Positions 2,243-8,698 of a stretch of 23,093 nucleotides of DNA are shown one piece after another. The notes beneath the pieces are model-generated. The model did no database searches, was not told the origin of the DNA, and was given only the letters and a program-made list of their open reading frames with translations. The DNA lies in assembly GCA_964354495.1 (NCBI GenBank), contig CAYHAA010000026.1, positions 1 to 23,093 of the forward strand, written 5' to 3'. The translations under genes were made by a program, and so were the position numbers. The stretch's first letter is position 1, and each line of letters starts with the position of its first letter. The DNA is from an uncultured archaeon (lineage in GTDB: Archaea; Asgardarchaeota; Thorarchaeia; Thorarchaeales; Thorarchaeaceae).

Positions 2243-3019
2243 CTAATCGATTCTGTAGATGGCAACGTTCGGGTGCTCCAGAAACTCCCATTTCCCATGG
2301 ACACCGGCCGAGAGAGCTCCAAGCTCTATGTGTAGCATTGCAATGCCACAATCAAGTCTTCTTGAAACGCCGAAATCAAGTCTTCTATTGTCAGCTGAAA
2401 CCATAATTGAGCTCTCTCCAATCTCAAGTCTCCATGGTTGCCTGTTCGCTGCTGAAGGTGCTAACCTAGCCGCCTCAATTGCTGGTTTAGTCCAGCTGTT
2501 CCCTTTAAAGTCACCACTCACGATGAGTCTGTTGAGATCCCTCCTCTTGTGAACCTTAGTGGAAACGCCTACTCTATCAATCTCGTCTTTCGAGTATCCG
2601 ATGGGCGTGACAGCTAGTACCTGTTCATTGTTCTGCAGATCAATCTGCCCTGCGACAGTATCACGGCGGAAGAAACCCCCCACCCAGCATGTATTGAGGC
2701 CAAGGACTGTTGCCTCAAGGATGATTCCCTCTCCGAGGTATCCTGTGACCTCTTGGACAGTAGGCTCTCTCATATCGCCAATGAATGCCACATAATACGG
2801 TGCATCTGTGACTTTGAAATATGAACCAATGATTCCCCTGAATACATCCTCTCCTGGTTGTTTCACAAGAACAGCTCTGGCACCAGAGAATGGTTGAAAA
2901 TCATTACACACCATGTCCAGTCTATTCACTAACTCTTCATCTGGTTTCTCTCCAGAGTATCTTCTCTGAGAATGCCTTAGGTAAATCGCATCGAACCAAG
3001 AATCTACAGGGATGTCCAC
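2243..3019 (-). CDS. Nitroreductase-family flavoprotein
   Basis: RHSQRRY FMN-binding start, LGLNTCWVGG, ARLAPSAANRQPW and DCGIAMLHIEL. Confidence 0.9.
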   Translation of the reverse strand: MDIPVDSWFDAIYLRHSQRRYSGEKPDEELVNRLDMVCNDFQPFSGARAVLVKQPGEDVFRGIIGSYFKVTDAPYYVAFIGDMREPTVQEVTGYLGEGIILEATVLGLNTCWVGGFFRRDTVAGQIDLQNNEQVLAVTPIGYSKDEIDRVGVSTKVHKRRDLNRLIVSGDFKGNSWTKPAIEAARLAPSAANRQPWRLEIGESSIMVSADNRRLDFGVSRRLDCGIAMLHIELGALSAGVHGKWEFLEHPNVAIYRID

Positions 3020-3106
3020 TGATATTCACCAAGTGATGAGATATGGAAGCTAAGAGATTAGTGTCTGCTATTGCGGCAAAATGAGTCCTGTTTCAATCAT
3101 CTCCGC

Positions 3107-3114
3107 TATAATAA
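3107..3114 (+). promoter_or_regulatory. Putative TATA box for the thiolase gene
   Basis: TATAATAA about 35 nt upstream of the ATG at 3149, in the divergent intergenic region. Confidence 0.4.
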
Positions 3115-3148
3115 AGAGTTAAGAATAGGGAGTCCTACAGAAAAGAGT

Positions 3149-4429
3149 ATGAAAGGCCTGAAAGATGTATGGTTGGTTGACTATGCGCGTACCCCATTCT
3201 CGCGGTCACGTCCTGAAAAGCCAGAAACTGATGTATTTGGTGAGATCAGGGGAGACGAGCTCCTCGCGCGATTGCTCATGAAGTTCTTCGACGGATCATT
3301 AGCGAAAAAAGGAATTGAGAAGAAAGACATAGAAGAGATCACTGTCGGGGTGGCTGCCGGAGTTCTTGAGAACTGGACCTACGGAGGGAAACTTCCCGCA
3401 ATCATGTCAGGATTTCCTCATCATGTGCCATCTCTCTTCATCGATCGCCAGTGTGGATCTGCAGGCTCTGGAATGCATATTGGCATCATGGAAATCATGA
3501 CAGGATTCAGCAAGATCGTGCTGTCTACTGGTTTTGAGCATATGACCCGAGTAAGAGGAAGAGGAGTCGAGCCCAACTATTCCATTGGTGATGAGAATTC
3601 GGAGTTCTACAGGCCGGATATAGATCTCAATACGATGTTCAACATGCTACAGACCGCCCAGAAACTATACGAGGAAGAGGTTCCTACTTTCACCAAGGAG
3701 GACATGGACAAATTCGGTGTCAGAAGTCATAATTTGACCATCAAGAATCAAGAAGCTGGATGGTTCAAAGGCGAGATTATACCTCTACTAGGACACACCT
3801 CGGGTAATATTGCTGAACCCATGGTAGTGGATAGAGATATGAACGCCAGGGCATCAACACTTGAGAAGGTCTCGACCCTGCCAAGAATATCGACACCATT
3901 CTATCTTGACAAGAATGGTGGGAAAGAGGGCTATATCAAACGAGAGGGGACAGCTGAGGGAGTCATTACGGCAGGCAATGCCTCGCCACTCAATGCGGGC
4001 GCCACTGCCGCAGTTCTTATGGAGGCAAAGGAGGCAGAGAAGAGGGGCATAGAGCCTATGGCACGGATCGTTTCCATGGGTTGGGCTGGAGTCGACCCCA
4101 CAGTCATGGGTCGTGGGCCTGTGCCGGCCACCAAGAAAGCCCTAAAGCATGCAGGACTAAACGTCGAGGACATTGACTACTGGGAGATAAATGAGGCCTT
4201 CAGTATTGTAGCCCTGAACTGCATGGACAAACTGAATATTCCTGAGGAGAAGGTGAATGTCATGGGGGGCTCCATCGCCATCGGACATCCTCTGGGTTCA
4301 ACCATGATTAGGTTGACCGGGACACTGGCAAGAACCCTCAAGGATAACAAGGCGAAATACGGGGTCGCCAATGCCTGTGTTGGTGGTGGACAGGGGGTTG
4401 CCACGGTCCTTGAGAACTTGAACGCATAA
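3149..4429 (+). CDS. Acetyl-CoA C-acyltransferase (thiolase)
   Basis: Catalytic motifs RQCGS, NEAF, GHPLG and CVGGGQG. Start moved from 3071 to the in-frame ATG at 3149 (MKGLKDVWLVDYARTPF), which matches typical thiolase N-termini. Confidence 0.95.
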   Translation: MKGLKDVWLVDYARTPFSRSRPEKPETDVFGEIRGDELLARLLMKFFDGSLAKKGIEKKDIEEITVGVAAGVLENWTYGGKLPAIMSGFPHHVPSLFIDRQCGSAGSGMHIGIMEIMTGFSKIVLSTGFEHMTRVRGRGVEPNYSIGDENSEFYRPDIDLNTMFNMLQTAQKLYEEEVPTFTKEDMDKFGVRSHNLTIKNQEAGWFKGEIIPLLGHTSGNIAEPMVVDRDMNARASTLEKVSTLPRISTPFYLDKNGGKEGYIKREGTAEGVITAGNASPLNAGATAAVLMEAKEAEKRGIEPMARIVSMGWAGVDPTVMGRGPVPATKKALKHAGLNVEDIDYWEINEAFSIVALNCMDKLNIPEEKVNVMGGSIAIGHPLGSTMIRLTGTLARTLKDNKAKYGVANACVGGGQGVATVLENLNA

Positions 4430-4462
4430 GAGAGTCCATTTTCAATCAGGACAGAGAAGTGA

Positions 4463-4485
4463 TGGCGCCGAGGACGAGATTTCAA
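4463..4485 (-). repeat. Displaced copy of the tRNA-Ser 3' end (att-like direct repeat)
   Basis: The minus strand reads TTGAAATCTCGTCCTCGGCGCCA. 4463-4482 matches 7184-7203 at 19/20 nt. There is no 5' T-stem or other tRNA portion upstream of it. Confidence 0.85.
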
Positions 4486-4680
4486 GCTGGCTAACATTTA
4501 TCTCAGAAACTAGTAGATATTCTAGGACGAATGCTTTCAGAAACAGAGTCAAGTCTGGTTTGAGAATGAATAATCACCTGTGAAAGAGCTGGTAGTTGAC
4601 CAACTTCGAGTTCTTCATTCTTACCTCTTGATTTCCCAGAATAGATATATTCGATTGCCATCTTTCCAAATACAGGGGCA

Positions 4681-6843
4681 ATGATAATGCTACGTGGTTC
4701 GCGTGCCTATCTTTTGTTTTTGTTAATTCTTGTTGTTTCACTTCTTTTTATACAAAAAGTGGACCCAGTATCGGACCAGACACTGTCTACTGAATATGAA
4801 ACTCCTGATTTCATCCCTGTGCTCTCTGAATATACCAACCATAGTCCAATAGAAATCTGGTCCAATCAGGACTTCGAGGATCAGGGTTGGCCTGGTAATG
4901 GGACTGCTGATAACCCCTACATCATCGAAGGCTTGAACATTACATCTGATGGGAGATGTATCACAGTTTTCGATACTACTGTCTACTATAGAATTACAAA
5001 CTGTCGCCTCTCATCATTCGGCGATCGTAGCAATGCTGGAATTCGAACTCAGAATGCCTCATATGGTTCCATTAGCAATTGCATCATTGATACGCATAGT
5101 GAAGGCATTCTCTTAGGAGAAAATTCAAATTACTGCAATGTGACCAACACGATTTGTTACAACAATCTGTTTCTTGGAATTCAGATCAATGGGGACCACT
5201 GCTTAGTCTGTAACAATACTTGCTTCGGCAATTTCATTGGGATTATCGCAGGTGGTAATCAGTACTGCATAGTCTATGAAAATAATTCAACTTTGAATCA
5301 TGGTGGAATTTCAGTATCTTCAAGTCAATTTACCTATGTCCACAACAACACGGTCGTTCGAAATTTCGAGCGCGGTCTACAGGTTGGTTTCTCTGAGTAT
5401 TGCATAATTGAGCAGAACTACGTTTTCAAGAGTGGTACTGACGGGATCTTTCTAGACCATGCAGAAAATTGTACATTCATCGAAAATACTGTCCTAAATA
5501 ACACTGAACGTGGATTCTATATTGAAGATACGATGTACTGCGAATTCCAGTCTAATCTTGCAGCAAACAATACATGGGAAGGTTTCTGGTTGTATGATTC
5601 TGATTCTAACACCTTTATAGAGAATACTGCAACCCAGAACTCAGGCGCAGGAATTGGTATGAATATATTCTGCTCCGGTAATAGAATGTATCTCAATGAG
5701 CTCAGTCTGAATATCATTAATAATGGTCAGGACTATTCAGGCGCAAACTATTGGGACGATGGAGTTTCAGTTGGAAATTACTGGGACGACTATAATGGGC
5801 GTGGATCTTATGCTGTGGGAGGATCAGGCGGCGCTTATGATAACTACCCCTTCTCCTTGGGCGTTATCCCTTACCTACAGCACCCAGAGGACATTGTTGT
5901 TGAGTACGGTTCCTCTAGCAATTCCATATTCTGGGATGCATATGATGTTGACCCGTCTACGTATCAGCTTTACATAGATGAGGTATTTCAGTTCTCAGAC
6001 GCTTGGAATGGTTCACCCATTGTCATAGACATTTATGGACAAGGAATTTCAAACCATAACTATACACTTGTTGTCGCGGATTCTCTAGGAAATTCGGCGA
6101 CTGATACAGTCTTTGTCACAGTACTTGATACAATTGTCCCCTCGATTGATGATCATTCCAATGTCGTTCTCGAGTATGGATCAACTGGTAACACGATAAC
6201 ATGGATCGCCAATGATCTTGATCCATCTAATTACGAGCTATATGTTAATGGAGAATTACAACTCACAGACACATGGAGCAATTCATCCATAAGCATCGAT
6301 ATCGATGATCTTGCGATCTCAGTCTACAATTTCACAATAGTAGTAGCAGATGGCTCAGGTAATTCTGCGTCTGACACCGTCCTTGTTACTGTACAGGACA
6401 CCATTTCACCCCTGGTCGAAAGCCCTTCTGACATTGAATTCGAAGAAGGAGAAACTGGACACAATATCACATGGGTTTCATTTGACCTAGACCCAGGGAC
6501 TTACATCATCTATAGAAATGCGGTAGCTATCGTAAATGAAGTCTGGAACACATCTCAAATCTCCATTTCATTAAACGGACTCTCTGCAGGAACATACAAT
6601 TTCACACTGGTATTGTTTGATAGTAGTGGTAATACCGCAGTGGACTATGTTATTGTGACAGTTGTCACTTCTACCTGCACATCATCAACAGCGACAAACC
6701 CACCCTCAACAACACCAACCAATCCTGACGAAGTCGATTCGCAAATGATTTTGGTGATAGCTGGACTAGGTAGCGTCATTGCGGTGGTTGCGGTCATCGT
6801 TGTCATTATGTTTAGGAAGGGAAAAGATGATGGCATGCCTTAA
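4681..6843 (+). CDS. Cell-surface protein: signal/anchor, NosD-like right-handed beta-helix, three Ig-like repeats, S/T linker, C-terminal TM anchor
   Basis: Hydrophobic N-terminus. Asn-ladder repeats (NxxxxNxxxGxxL). Three ~85-90 aa repeats ending GNSATDTVFVTV, GNSASDTVLVTV and GNTAVDYVIVTV. Then TSSTATNPPSTTPT, and a TM segment followed by RKGK. Confidence 0.85.
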   Translation: MIMLRGSRAYLLFLLILVVSLLFIQKVDPVSDQTLSTEYETPDFIPVLSEYTNHSPIEIWSNQDFEDQGWPGNGTADNPYIIEGLNITSDGRCITVFDTTVYYRITNCRLSSFGDRSNAGIRTQNASYGSISNCIIDTHSEGILLGENSNYCNVTNTICYNNLFLGIQINGDHCLVCNNTCFGNFIGIIAGGNQYCIVYENNSTLNHGGISVSSSQFTYVHNNTVVRNFERGLQVGFSEYCIIEQNYVFKSGTDGIFLDHAENCTFIENTVLNNTERGFYIEDTMYCEFQSNLAANNTWEGFWLYDSDSNTFIENTATQNSGAGIGMNIFCSGNRMYLNELSLNIINNGQDYSGANYWDDGVSVGNYWDDYNGRGSYAVGGSGGAYDNYPFSLGVIPYLQHPEDIVVEYGSSSNSIFWDAYDVDPSTYQLYIDEVFQFSDAWNGSPIVIDIYGQGISNHNYTLVVADSLGNSATDTVFVTVLDTIVPSIDDHSNVVLEYGSTGNTITWIANDLDPSNYELYVNGELQLTDTWSNSSISIDIDDLAISVYNFTIVVADGSGNSASDTVLVTVQDTISPLVESPSDIEFEEGETGHNITWVSFDLDPGTYIIYRNAVAIVNEVWNTSQISISLNGLSAGTYNFTLVLFDSSGNTAVDYVIVTVVTSTCTSSTATNPPSTTPTNPDEVDSQMILVIAGLGSVIAVVAVIVVIMFRKGKDDGMP

Positions 6844-6844
6844 A

Positions 6845-7152
6845 GCAAACATAGAGGCGTCTTTTCCAATCACTGTCCTGCATCACGAAGGCCACATGAC
6901 ACCGGGGACAGACCACCACCATCTCACCAGCAGCTAGGTCCTGCTTGCCAGCTCTGCGGAGGGTCTTCCATTGACCACCGTAGCTCCAGGAGGCTCGATC
7001 TCGACAACTTTAAACCCAATGAGCCGACCAGCAAGAGATACATCGAATTAATTGTCTTCCAATAATGGAGCTCCACTAAGATTCCATCTCAAATTATCTG
7101 TTAGACGATCAAAGTCAAAGTAGTGTTTGCTATCGACTGGTATTAAGACAGG
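6845..7152 (-). pseudogene. Degraded gene: CDC48 N-terminal subdomain 2-like region followed by a RING-like zinc-finger remnant
   Basis: Manual translation gives VLIPVDSKHYFDFDRLTDNLRWNLSGAPLLEDN*FDVSLAGRLIGFKVVEIEPPGATVV (TAA at 7050-7048). A shifted frame then gives KQDLAAGEMVVVCPRCHVAF, and another shift gives *LEKTPLC. No start codon after the tRNA. Confidence 0.55.
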
Positions 7153-7183
7153 TCAGCGATTATTTGTCAATCTAAGAGAGAAA

Positions 7184-7332
7184 TGGCGCCGAGGATGAGA
7201 TTTGTTCGATTCCACGAGATGTAGACTTCTTTGAACTCATGCGTGACAAGCACACCGGTTGCCTTGGATACCAGCTTCCGAAGAAACCGGTTTTCAAGAC
7301 CGGCGCCGTAATCCGAGCTTGGCTACCTCGGC
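7184..7332 (-). tRNA. tRNA-Ser (anticodon UGA) with two introns: 7261-7292 (32 nt, position 37/38) and 7202-7230 (29 nt, position 58/59); CCA encoded
   Basis: Acceptor stem GCCGAGG/CCTCGGC with discriminator G and CCA. Anticodon arm CCGGT-CTTGAAA-ACCGG. Variable arm T-GTG-CTTGT-CAC-GC. T arm ATGAG-TTCAAAT-CTCAT after splicing. Mature length 88 nt. Both introns are flanked by bulge-helix-bulge-type motifs. Confidence 0.93.
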
Positions 7333-7397: not shown

Positions 7398-7829
7398 TTG
7401 GAAAGAGGATTCAGATTCCACGAGCACACGGCTGATATCATCATCGAGTGCTGGGCTCCATCCTTAGTGGAGGCTTTTGAGGAGGCTGCAAGAGCAACAT
7501 TTGAAGTAATCCTCGATCCAACGACAGTTGCCACATCAGAGACTGTTGAATTGTCTGTTCTAGGAATCGACCTGGAGGAGCTACTTGTCGAGTGGATTGG
7601 AACTCTCATCGCATTGATAGACATCAATGACCAATTCTACTCCAAGTTCGAGGTTGATGAGATCTCTCACGAATCAAACGGTTACAGTCTCAAAGGAAGA
7701 GCATTCGGCGAAAGGATTGACCATCATAGACATGTTACACGGACAGAGGTCAAGGCTATGACCTACGCTGACATGAAGATAATTGAGCGCACAGGTAAGA
7801 CAACACTCTGGTTCACTTTGGACCTTTAG
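7398..7829 (+). CDS. Archease (RtcB tRNA-ligase cofactor)
   Basis: N-terminal FHEHTADI and C-terminal EVKAMTY motifs. 143 aa, TTG start. Confidence 0.95.
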   Translation: MERGFRFHEHTADIIIECWAPSLVEAFEEAARATFEVILDPTTVATSETVELSVLGIDLEELLVEWIGTLIALIDINDQFYSKFEVDEISHESNGYSLKGRAFGERIDHHRHVTRTEVKAMTYADMKIIERTGKTTLWFTLDL

Positions 7830-7837
7830 GAGGGCAG

Positions 7838-8698
7838 ATGATGACACTCAAAGTAGCTATTCCAGACACCTCACTGATTGACTGCACAGATCTAAGGCAG
7901 AAGACAGTAAAGGTCGGTCAAATTGCGCGTGCACTAGTCATCTTTCGAGTAGAGGAGGTCATTGTCTATAGTACTGGGAAACTGCCGTCTACACAGACGA
8001 TGGACGTTGACTTGCTTGTGAAACTACTGAGATTCTTAGACACTCCACAGTACCTCAGACGGAGAGTCTTTCCCCAGTCCCCATCGCTACAATATGCGGG
8101 GCTTCTTCCTCCTCTGAGGACGCGCAGTCATCCTCTCTCGTCGAAAGTCACAGACATGACGGTTGGCATAGTGAGATGGGGGATTCAAGTCCGTTCTGGG
8201 AAGATTGACCTAGGACTTGACGAGCTCATTGATTCTCCTATGATGGTGAGCGAACGTGATCCGACCCTCTTCAGGGTTGAAGCGACTACTCCCACAATGT
8301 CTCTGGCCGTCATAAGCAGGTCTGATGTTCCAGTCTATTGGGGATATGTGGCCAGTCGAGCTGGGTGCCTGCTTGATTTACTTAAAGACTCCAGCGATAT
8401 GACGCGAATCGGCTTTTCGAGAAAGGCGCCCCCTTTCCAGAAACTGGAGAAAGACCTGAAATCCACAGTATCCAATACGGGCTCAGTCCTTGCTGTATTT
8501 GGGAGCCCAGACAGAGGTATCCTTGAGCTCTGTGACTCACAGAGAGATGATGTCAAAAATCATATTGATTTCTGGGCAAATACGATAGATGACCAAGGGT
8601 CCGAGACTGTCCGTCTGGAAGAGGCACTTACGGTCACCTTAGGTCTCTTGAACAGCACAGTAGGAAAGGTAATCGCCCGACCTGGCTTCTATGCGTAA
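7838..8698 (+). CDS. SPOUT-class RNA methyltransferase, DUF171/MTH1 (SPOUT1-like) family
   Basis: KVGQIARALVIFRVEE, TPQYLRRRVFP...LQYAGLLPPL, VFGSPDRG and NTIDDQGSETVRLEEA. Confidence 0.9.
   Translation: MMTLKVAIPDTSLIDCTDLRQKTVKVGQIARALVIFRVEEVIVYSTGKLPSTQTMDVDLLVKLLRFLDTPQYLRRRVFPQSPSLQYAGLLPPLRTRSHPLSSKVTDMTVGIVRWGIQVRSGKIDLGLDELIDSPMMVSERDPTLFRVEATTPTMSLAVISRSDVPVYWGYVASRAGCLLDLLKDSSDMTRIGFSRKAPPFQKLEKDLKSTVSNTGSVLAVFGSPDRGILELCDSQRDDVKNHIDFWANTIDDQGSETVRLEEALTVTLGLLNSTVGKVIARPGFYA

Follow-up and report, generated by a model that had tools for sequence, protein, structure and literature searches.

Small packets of genes bounded by repeats at tRNA genes are an established route of gene flow. 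Asgard archaea are the closest relatives of eukaryotes and, to our knowledge, the agents of such gene flow among them are barely known. Capture of genes at archaeal tRNA genes was reportedly recognised by She and co-workers in 2001. The tycheposons of Prochlorococcus use tRNA-specific tyrosine or large serine recombinases, usually carry replication modules and have attachment (att) sites of about 40 nt (bioRxiv 10.1101/2020.12.28.424599), and archaeal integrative elements of the SSV and pNOB8 types have been reviewed along with gene capture at tRNA genes (PMC3293823, PMC7253208). A tRNA gene may also gain an intron from an integrating element with an intron-bearing attP (Sugahara et al. 2012, PMC3293823). 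Mobility of another kind is represented by mobE of phage T4, a free-standing HNH homing endonuclease gene (PMC2790892). Here we describe a duplicated tRNA-Ser(UGA) 3′ end, and the 2.7-kb unit that it brackets, in the genome of an uncultured Thorarchaeota archaeon. The genome (G000; genomes, contigs and loci are labelled G, C and L, respectively) is a 3.3-Mb assembly, 97.7% complete, and the window analysed, 23,093 nucleotides in length, is the whole of contig C26.

A 20-mer occurs on the forward strand of the window at 4463-4482 and again at 7184-7203. The repeat extends to 21 nt (4462-4482 against 7183-7203), of which 20 are identical, and no match arose by chance in 100 dinucleotide shuffles with up to three mismatches allowed. 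In the whole assembly the 20-mer has these two copies only, with one near match (two mismatches, at C3:180647) that belongs to a different class-II tRNA; it is not a sequence common away from tRNA genes. An earlier reading of the window, made without database searches and called here the sequence-only reading, had taken the repeat for a direct duplication of a tRNA-Ser 3′ end, and this is borne out. The gene concerned, tRNA-Ser(UGA), occupies 7184-7332 on the minus strand and was missed by gene finders because two introns interrupt it; neither ARAGORN nor Rfam reported a tRNA on the raw window. Once 29 nt (7204-7232, minus strand) are taken out, ARAGORN calls an intact tRNA-Ser(tga) with a canonical 32-nt intron at position 37/38 (7261-7292, minus strand). 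Alignment of orthologs with and without the 29 nt identifies them as an insert in the T-loop, at position 56/57. The 5′ half of the gene occurs once in the genome.

The repeat is the 3′ exon of this tRNA. The exon (7184-7203, minus strand) reads AAAT-CTCAT-CCTCGGC-G-CCA, spanning the last four T-loop bases, the 3′ strands of the T-stem and acceptor stem, the discriminator and CCA, and the proximal copy (7183-7203, minus strand) adds one nucleotide to it. The distal copy (4462-4482, minus strand) is an orphan, placed 2.7 kb downstream of the tRNA gene in direct orientation and 33 nt past the stop codon of a thiolase gene. It is preceded by TTG, which resembles the TTC that starts the T-loop in the insert-free form. 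The single A/G difference (CTCAT against CTCGT) falls in the 3′ strand of the T-stem, where a G-U pair would be possible as the sequence-only reading had supposed, and the G variant is a normal tRNA allele in some relatives. The arrangement, a direct repeat of a tRNA 3′ segment that brackets an insert with the intact tRNA at one end and the second copy downstream, is of the attL/attR type and had been recognised as such.

Between the copies lie one intact gene (4681-6843) and one broken gene fragment (6870-6981), as previously noted. No recombinase or integrase gene is found there, the only intact ORF (open reading frame) being that for a beta-helix/PKD protein. We consider it likely that the feature is an insertion scar in a tRNA-seeded cassette hotspot and that the 2.7-kb unit, which is low in G+C, is non-autonomous or decayed, since it carries no gene for recombination. 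That insertion was site-specific rather than the result of homologous exchange, and which enzyme was responsible, are points that we infer from the comparisons that follow.

Fifty-three distinct tRNA-Ser(UGA) genes were collected from 28 genomes of the genus, together with further public genomes and contigs from metagenomes; 39 are followed by at least 1.5 kb of downstream sequence and are informative with respect to insertion. Of the 39, 20 have the tRNA 3′ end repeated as orphan copies, one to three in number, all direct and all downstream. Successive copies are 344-7990 nt apart (median near 1.1 kb), and most units hold one gene. The duplicated block runs from T54 to A76; it mostly begins at T54, with TTC ahead of the 20-mer, and measures 52 nt where it includes the 29-nt insert (L175:4500, L174:6300 and L150:2563). 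The orphan copies in relatives show decay, with CCA changed to CTA or CAA and up to three mismatches.

The order tRNA-Ser(UGA), archease, methyltransferase is kept in the genus and it is the DNA behind the tRNA 3′ end that varies. In five cases (G022, G005, G017, G009 and G015b) an orphan copy abuts a flank that begins ttttgccgcaatagcag... and leads into a nitroreductase gene. In G011 and G023 the same flank lies directly behind the tRNA with no orphan copy between. These two represent the unoccupied state, because their tRNA-adjoining flank is what orphan copies abut elsewhere. Other cargo occupies the site in G020, G014, G042, G022, G013 and further relatives, and arrays of two to four copies are present in G013, G019, G024, L133 and SDBU01000005. 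The alignment with relatives that the sequence-only reading had proposed has therefore returned both empty sites and sites that are differently filled. As in tycheposons, a full-length tRNA seeds a variable island whose modules are separated by partial tRNA copies.

The cargo is diverse and its genes face either way. It includes a LigT-like 2′-5′ RNA ligase (G013, G019), formamidase (G022, G015b), Tag DNA glycosylase (G020), an OLD-family nuclease with a TIR protein (G015), a HerA-like ATPase with an HTH/HNH protein (L148), Schlafen/AlbA and PLD nucleases (L174, L175), a TPR protein, membrane proteins and nitroreductase. A hotspot that swaps surface proteins had been envisaged. The hotspot is real; the emphasis on surface proteins is not upheld, with enzymes, defence genes and membrane proteins all represented. 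Three relatives have the orphan copy 33-40 nt past the thiolase stop codon, as in the window, and differ in what adjoins it: the Tag glycosylase in G020, a 252-aa ORF without assignment in G014 and just 324 bp in G042. The 2.7-kb content of the window is at this locus in none of the other genomes searched and is not a fixed feature of distant relatives. We also note that units at tRNA-Ser(UGA) often resemble anti-virus defence modules, for example L148:1642-8721, the OLD and membrane TIR pair of L026 (G015:C78), and those of L174 and L175. The G015 contigs C78 and C141 (L026 and L081) carry two versions of the tRNA-Ser/archease region from different clades, and that assembly probably mixes two organisms.

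Change at the locus is seen between close relatives. L148 is 89% identical to the window across the tRNA and archease, and its 8-kb cargo is wholly different. G024, G007 and G015b have near-identical archease and methyltransferase proteins, different units and different states of the T-loop insert. The LigT unit is first in the array of G013, not in that of G019, and is 89% identical between the two as against 82% and 69% for neighbouring genes.

The likely mechanism would start with foreign DNA inserting site-specifically into the 3′ part of tRNA-Ser(UGA), the duplicated block being T54-A76. The tRNA would stay complete because the incoming DNA provides a replacement 3′ end, and the original one would be shifted downstream as the orphan copy. 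Repeated insertions would stack short, mostly single-gene units behind the tRNA to create a tRNA-seeded variable island. The enzyme that inserts the units would act in trans or would have been lost.

Could the distal copy have a function of its own? It coincides exactly with the 3′ exon, and split and multi-intron tRNAs exist in archaea, so one can imagine a spare exon used in trans-splicing, or a decoy to which a tRNA-binding factor binds. There is no complementary upstream leader able to form the splicing helix, the copies of relatives decay freely and their position varies from 0.3 to 8 kb. We find a functional role scarcely credible.

What enzyme might then be responsible? The sequence-only reading had ascribed the geometry to a tyrosine recombinase and called for a genome-wide integrase search. 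That attribution finds no support: neither PF00589 nor PF16795 is found in G000, and tblastn with the integrase ORFs of the genus detects no integrase in about 130 related loci. The approximately 40 occupied loci contain no integrase or recognisable fragment, there is no SSV-type split integrase ORF across either repeat copy in the window, and no tRNA-specific tyrosine or large serine recombinase of the tycheposon type was found at the related loci. Across the 28 genomes of the genus PF16795 is absent (0/28), whilst PF00589 hits occur in nine, on small contigs, none of which bears the 20-mer. Two small serine recombinases are encoded in G000, on other contigs and unconnected with the repeat. 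Neither Cas1 nor Y1 transposase was detected in G000. The lack of Cas1, together with unit ends that are not inverted repeats, does not match a casposon, and an integron is not matched by archease and SPOUT genes beside the tRNA, a repeat that is a tRNA end and mixed gene orientation.

The recombinases that do exist in the genus bear on an alternative in which an ordinary virus or plasmid, equipped with a tyrosine or serine recombinase of a type that crosses over in the T-loop, left the unit behind as a remnant, the integrase and most of the element having later been deleted, or the integrase now residing on an unbinned element, and putative HNH genes found at related loci (see below) being selfish passengers. 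Identity blocks that extend from the T-loop, or in tRNA-Val(GAC) from the anticodon loop, to the 3′ end are the classic integrase att pattern; Williams is said to have noted in 2002 that such blocks start in tRNA loops and run to the 3′ end. The tyrosine recombinases on small contigs in nine of the 28 genomes and the two small serine recombinases of G000 could belong to such elements, and binning of metagenome-assembled genomes often drops mobile elements. We nevertheless judge this explanation unlikely. Integrases and their fragments are missing from some 40 occupied loci, and the 20-mer is absent both from the integrase contigs of the genus and from IMG/VR (0 matches). In addition the units mostly hold a single gene and yet both att copies survive, an outcome that random decay would seldom leave, and the tRNA-adjoining spot expected of an integrase is occupied by a putative HNH gene.

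This gene is a recurrent ORF of about 330 aa. The protein has two sigma-70-region-4-like helix-turn-helix (HTH) motifs and two tandem Cys/His modules, both with an invariant CxxC...H-K-D...H...CxxCH signature. Of the 39 informative Ser(UGA) loci, 8 have the gene directly against the 3′ end of the tRNA. Paralogs are numerous in a genus-wide search, and in about 18 of the 26 loci examined the distance to a tRNA 3′ end is no more than approximately 100 nt. The tRNAs concerned are Val-GAC, Val-CAC, Val-UAC, Glu-UUC, Thr-CGU, Leu and Ser. Repeat-bounded units of 1.1-1.4 kb in L175, L174, L161, L118, L195 and L197 contain this gene and no other, and orphan copies lie beyond it at tRNA-Thr (L195), a second tRNA-Ser (L197) and tRNA-Val (L192). 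At tRNA-Val(GAC) the identity block begins in the anticodon loop and runs to the 3′ end.

One member of the family gives a weak Pfam match to HNH (E 1.5e-4). An AlphaFold (AF2) model of a single module has a pLDDT of 91, and its best Foldseek matches are all HNH domains (Cap5, Cas5-HNH, McrA and Cas9-HNH). Fold searches with the full-length model return HTH matches only and a profile search of PDB sequences matches the HTH part alone. The N-terminal part resembles, in fold searches, the bipartite DNA-binding domains of Tc3/mariner transposases. The family is nearly confined to Thorarchaeota records, in which members are named hypothetical, HTH protein or, automatically, transposase. Its subfamilies follow the adjacent tRNA.

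From the position of the gene and the predicted fold we infer that the HTH + tandem-HNH family is the best lead for the missing activity; this protein, a predicted nuclease beside tRNA 3′ ends in relatives, would be the candidate trans-acting enzyme. A more far-reaching proposal is that Thorarchaeota harbour an undescribed type of integrase-less tRNA cassette, which inserts in the T-loop or anticodon loop, supplies a replacement 3′ end (sometimes with a mini-intron), and is driven by the HTH + tandem-HNH protein, whose subfamilies are each tied to one tRNA, the unit of the window having been mobilised in trans. We put this forward tentatively, as a possibility on which we would not rely. If it is true, tRNA introns are made and erased as a by-product of cassette insertion.

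The flanks indicate that the foreign DNA is more extensive than the unit. The order of genes in the window is Elp3, a TM1586-type nitroreductase, thiolase, the unit, the tRNA, archease, SPOUT methyltransferase, a glycyl-radical enzyme and ribosomal proteins. The archease and SPOUT RNA-methyltransferase genes (7398-8698, plus strand) form the conserved flank on the 5′ side of the tRNA, and by these two genes G000 groups with G017 and G002, a clade in which the far neighbours of the tRNA are Elp3 and the nitroreductase. The nitroreductase gene (2243-3019, minus strand) is the ancestral downstream neighbour of the tRNA in relatives and in several of them is itself a repeat-bounded unit. The thiolase gene (3149-4429, plus strand) has its own conserved promoter and shares 83-86% identity with its counterparts in the other clade of the genus. 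A 17-nt direct repeat brackets it (3083-3099 and 4432-4448) and abuts the ancestral tRNA-downstream flank at 3054-3082.

No ortholog of the thiolase was found in five genomes of the clade to which G000 belongs, where the best hits are 33-36% identical. In a poorly resolved tree the G000 thiolase nests among those of the other clade with moderate support, and the case for lateral origin rests mainly on the absence from those five genomes because the tree is so poorly resolved. The flank at 3054-3082, which has no tRNA copy, and the 17-nt repeat suggest that the thiolase and the orphan copy probably arrived together, laterally, from the other clade. By this sequence comparison the foreign block relative to nearest kin appears to be about 3083-7183, thiolase included. 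The sequence-only reading was right about the geometry, the missing integrase and the hotspot, unsupported on the tyrosine recombinase and the focus on surface proteins, and probably drew the foreign block too small.

The thiolase brings in a further alternative, in which no site-specific element takes part: local duplication or gene conversion would produce the orphan copies, and homologous exchange through conserved flanks, with differential loss, would account for the differences in cargo. The thiolase block apparently entered without an att copy at its far end, having the 17-nt flanking repeat instead; tRNA alleles and flanks are mosaic among close relatives; and G000 and L148 diverge 23 nt past CCA, away from the repeat. 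On the other side, the same exact 5′ boundary, T54, recurs in dozens of independent units with unrelated cargo. The copies are always direct and always downstream, and the same design is present at other tRNAs. Homologous exchange could move finished units, but leaves the origin of the units unexplained. We regard this alternative as very improbable.

Several of these observations, with others, do count against the reading of an insertion scar in a cassette hotspot and against the candidate enzyme, and should be set out. The ancestral flank at 3054-3082 is kept without a tRNA copy, and it follows from the thiolase block, which lacks a far-end tRNA copy, that at least one event here was not of the att type. 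The similarity between G000 and L148 ends 23 nt after CCA rather than at the repeat, and these shared nucleotides mean that cargo may change inside a unit without use of an att site. No free element bearing an attP was seen and the 20-mer, as mentioned, has no match in IMG/VR. With respect to the enzyme, the HTH + tandem-HNH profile finds no trace in any frame of 4400-7300, and G000 has one partial homolog only, elsewhere in the genome. The Foldseek matches of the HNH-like module are weak (E 0.1-2), and the clustering of subfamilies by tRNA could reflect vertical inheritance. HNH nucleases cut DNA and we know of none that carries out conservative site-specific recombination.

The T-loop insert provides a second line of comparison. 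It is present in 24 of the 53 tRNA-Ser(UGA) genes, and its inner hairpin shows compensatory changes among alleles. For the insert RNAfold gives the T-stem and the inner hairpin and nothing more, and a bulge-helix-bulge drawn by hand is at best tentative. The insert falls within the duplicated block, and proximal and orphan copies with and without it occur in all combinations. Its association with units is loose (12/18 versus 8/21) and very close relatives differ in having it. We considered whether the insert always arrives with a unit and reject this, with units that lack the insert in G042, G024, L161 and others. The patterns fit an integration that swaps the 3′ part of the tRNA together with its intron, though they do not prove that model (PMC3293823).

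The canonical intron (7261-7292) has features of its own. It repeats the 3′ strand of the anticodon stem and contains TTTCTTCGGAAGC, a sequence that G011 and G020, whose alleles have no intron, use as the variable arm; the tRNA-Ser intron of G042 additionally retains the old 5′ strand of the T-stem. Since it repeats the anticodon-stem strand, that variable arm and, in G042, the T-stem strand, the intron looks like a displaced older 3′ part of the tRNA.

Other tRNA genes display related peculiarities. A second class-II tRNA of G000 (C15:12391-12540, L209) carries an insert of 30 nt in the same place in its T-loop (TTC / insert / GAAT), and T-loop introns in this genome are therefore not restricted to tRNA-Ser(UGA). 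At C3:180647-180800 (L003, minus strand) there is a class-II, tRNA-Ser-like gene with acceptor GCTGAGG, discriminator G, CCA and a long insert before the T-arm. Its 7-nt anticodon loop, TTTTAAA, would give the anticodon UUA, matching the stop codon UAA, and its 3′ end is found again in G012, G002 and G017. ARAGORN labels one gene in G024:C151 as 'tRNA-Stop (tta)'. At tRNA-Glu(UUC) in L186 (G007:C38) and L208 (G015:C86), extra copies of the 3′ end are inverted and upstream of the gene, in contrast to the direct, downstream copies of other loci.

The intact cargo gene (4681-6843, plus strand) encodes a 720-aa secreted, membrane-anchored protein with a signal peptide, a C-terminal membrane anchor and Pfam matches to a NosD-like right-handed beta-helix and PKD/Ig-like repeats. 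Its G+C content is 41.5% compared to a genome average of 47.75%, placing it in the lowest 2% of genome windows of the same size. Paralogs within the genome share only 25-35% identity. The nearest homolog, in G020 on contig C75, is 74% identical in nucleotide sequence and lies at another locus, on a contig from which the 20-mer is absent. The idea that G020 has the same cargo at the tRNA locus is rejected; its contigs C230 and C394 overlap and the unit there is the Tag glycosylase gene.

The broken fragment (6870-6981, minus strand) derives from a small conserved ORF (...WKTLRRAGKQDLAAGEMVVVCPRCHVAF...). Every frame is broken, by a frameshift on one strand and a stop on the other, and the nucleotide sequence is 82-89% identical to intact ORFs of about 65 aa in seven relatives. 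In those relatives the intact ORF adjoins a gene for a multi-pass membrane protein at a locus other than the tRNA. The relatives keep a small-ORF gene pair between the multi-pass membrane protein gene and a 120-aa gene. At the native locus in G000 (C4 near 172.8 kb, L211) the ORF is absent and only 39 nt are left, which indicates that the segment was lost from its home and that a piece survives at the tRNA. Two other assignments of the fragment were discarded. A CDC48/RING reading is unsupported, the match being to the small conserved ORF of relatives, and an HNH-family relic is rejected on profile scores near zero. Elsewhere in G000 (C22:1317-1724 and C22:4837-4935) a gene for a 201-aa serine recombinase and a diverged paralog of the small Cys-containing ORF are about 3 kb apart and may constitute a small mobile element.

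The locus matters in several respects. It is a well-sampled archaeal example, with 53 alleles, arrays, empty sites and defence cargo. Many natural alleles place a non-canonical archaeal tRNA intron exactly within the attachment block, which makes the old idea that mobile elements create and remove tRNA introns testable. There is also a concrete candidate for the missing enzyme in the unannotated tandem-HNH family beside tRNA 3′ ends. This case contributes the candidate enzyme and the connection with introns.

How does the locus compare with described systems? In integrons, too, cassettes of mostly one gene are lined up in order beside one fixed primary site, and all of them end in the same short sequence resembling a recombination site. 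Here, however, no IntI-type integrase lies beside the site, a tRNA end takes the place of the attC hairpin and genes face both ways. Free-standing HNH homing genes share the association of a selfish nuclease gene with a conserved target, a patchy distribution among relatives and co-transfer of flanking DNA. Known examples have neither a duplicated target segment nor cassette arrays, the Thorarchaeota family is a predicted nuclease, and the window unit holds no endonuclease gene. In common with the Sugahara model the att block starts at T54 with the 29-nt insert, at 56/57, inside it. That case concerns a single locus, where the fragment is a 5′ one and the insert contains a recombinase gene, whereas here there are dozens of natural alleles, 3′ fragments and no recombinase, and presence of the insert is not tightly linked to presence of a unit.

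The SSV and pNOB8 types resemble the locus in having a directly repeated tRNA 3′ segment, a tRNA that is reconstituted, and elements that become trapped and immobile. The pNOB8 type has its recombinase gene immediately next to the tRNA, on the same strand, the spot taken here by the HNH-family gene. Unlike these types, the present units contain neither a split int(N)/int(C) pair nor a gene of PF16795 or PF00589, and they are much smaller than a virus or plasmid. With tycheposons and tRNA-seeded additive islands the similarities are a full-length tRNA seed at the proximal end, direct partial copies bounding the cargo modules, accumulation of integrase-less degenerate modules, defence and niche cargo, and high heterogeneity among close relatives. 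The differences from tycheposons are the absence of a recombinase, units of mostly one gene, an identity block of 20-23 nt (52 nt with the T-loop insert) and the Asgard host. The most economical reading would be a tRNA-seeded additive island akin to tycheposons and to archaeal integrative elements, with no recombinase in any unit.

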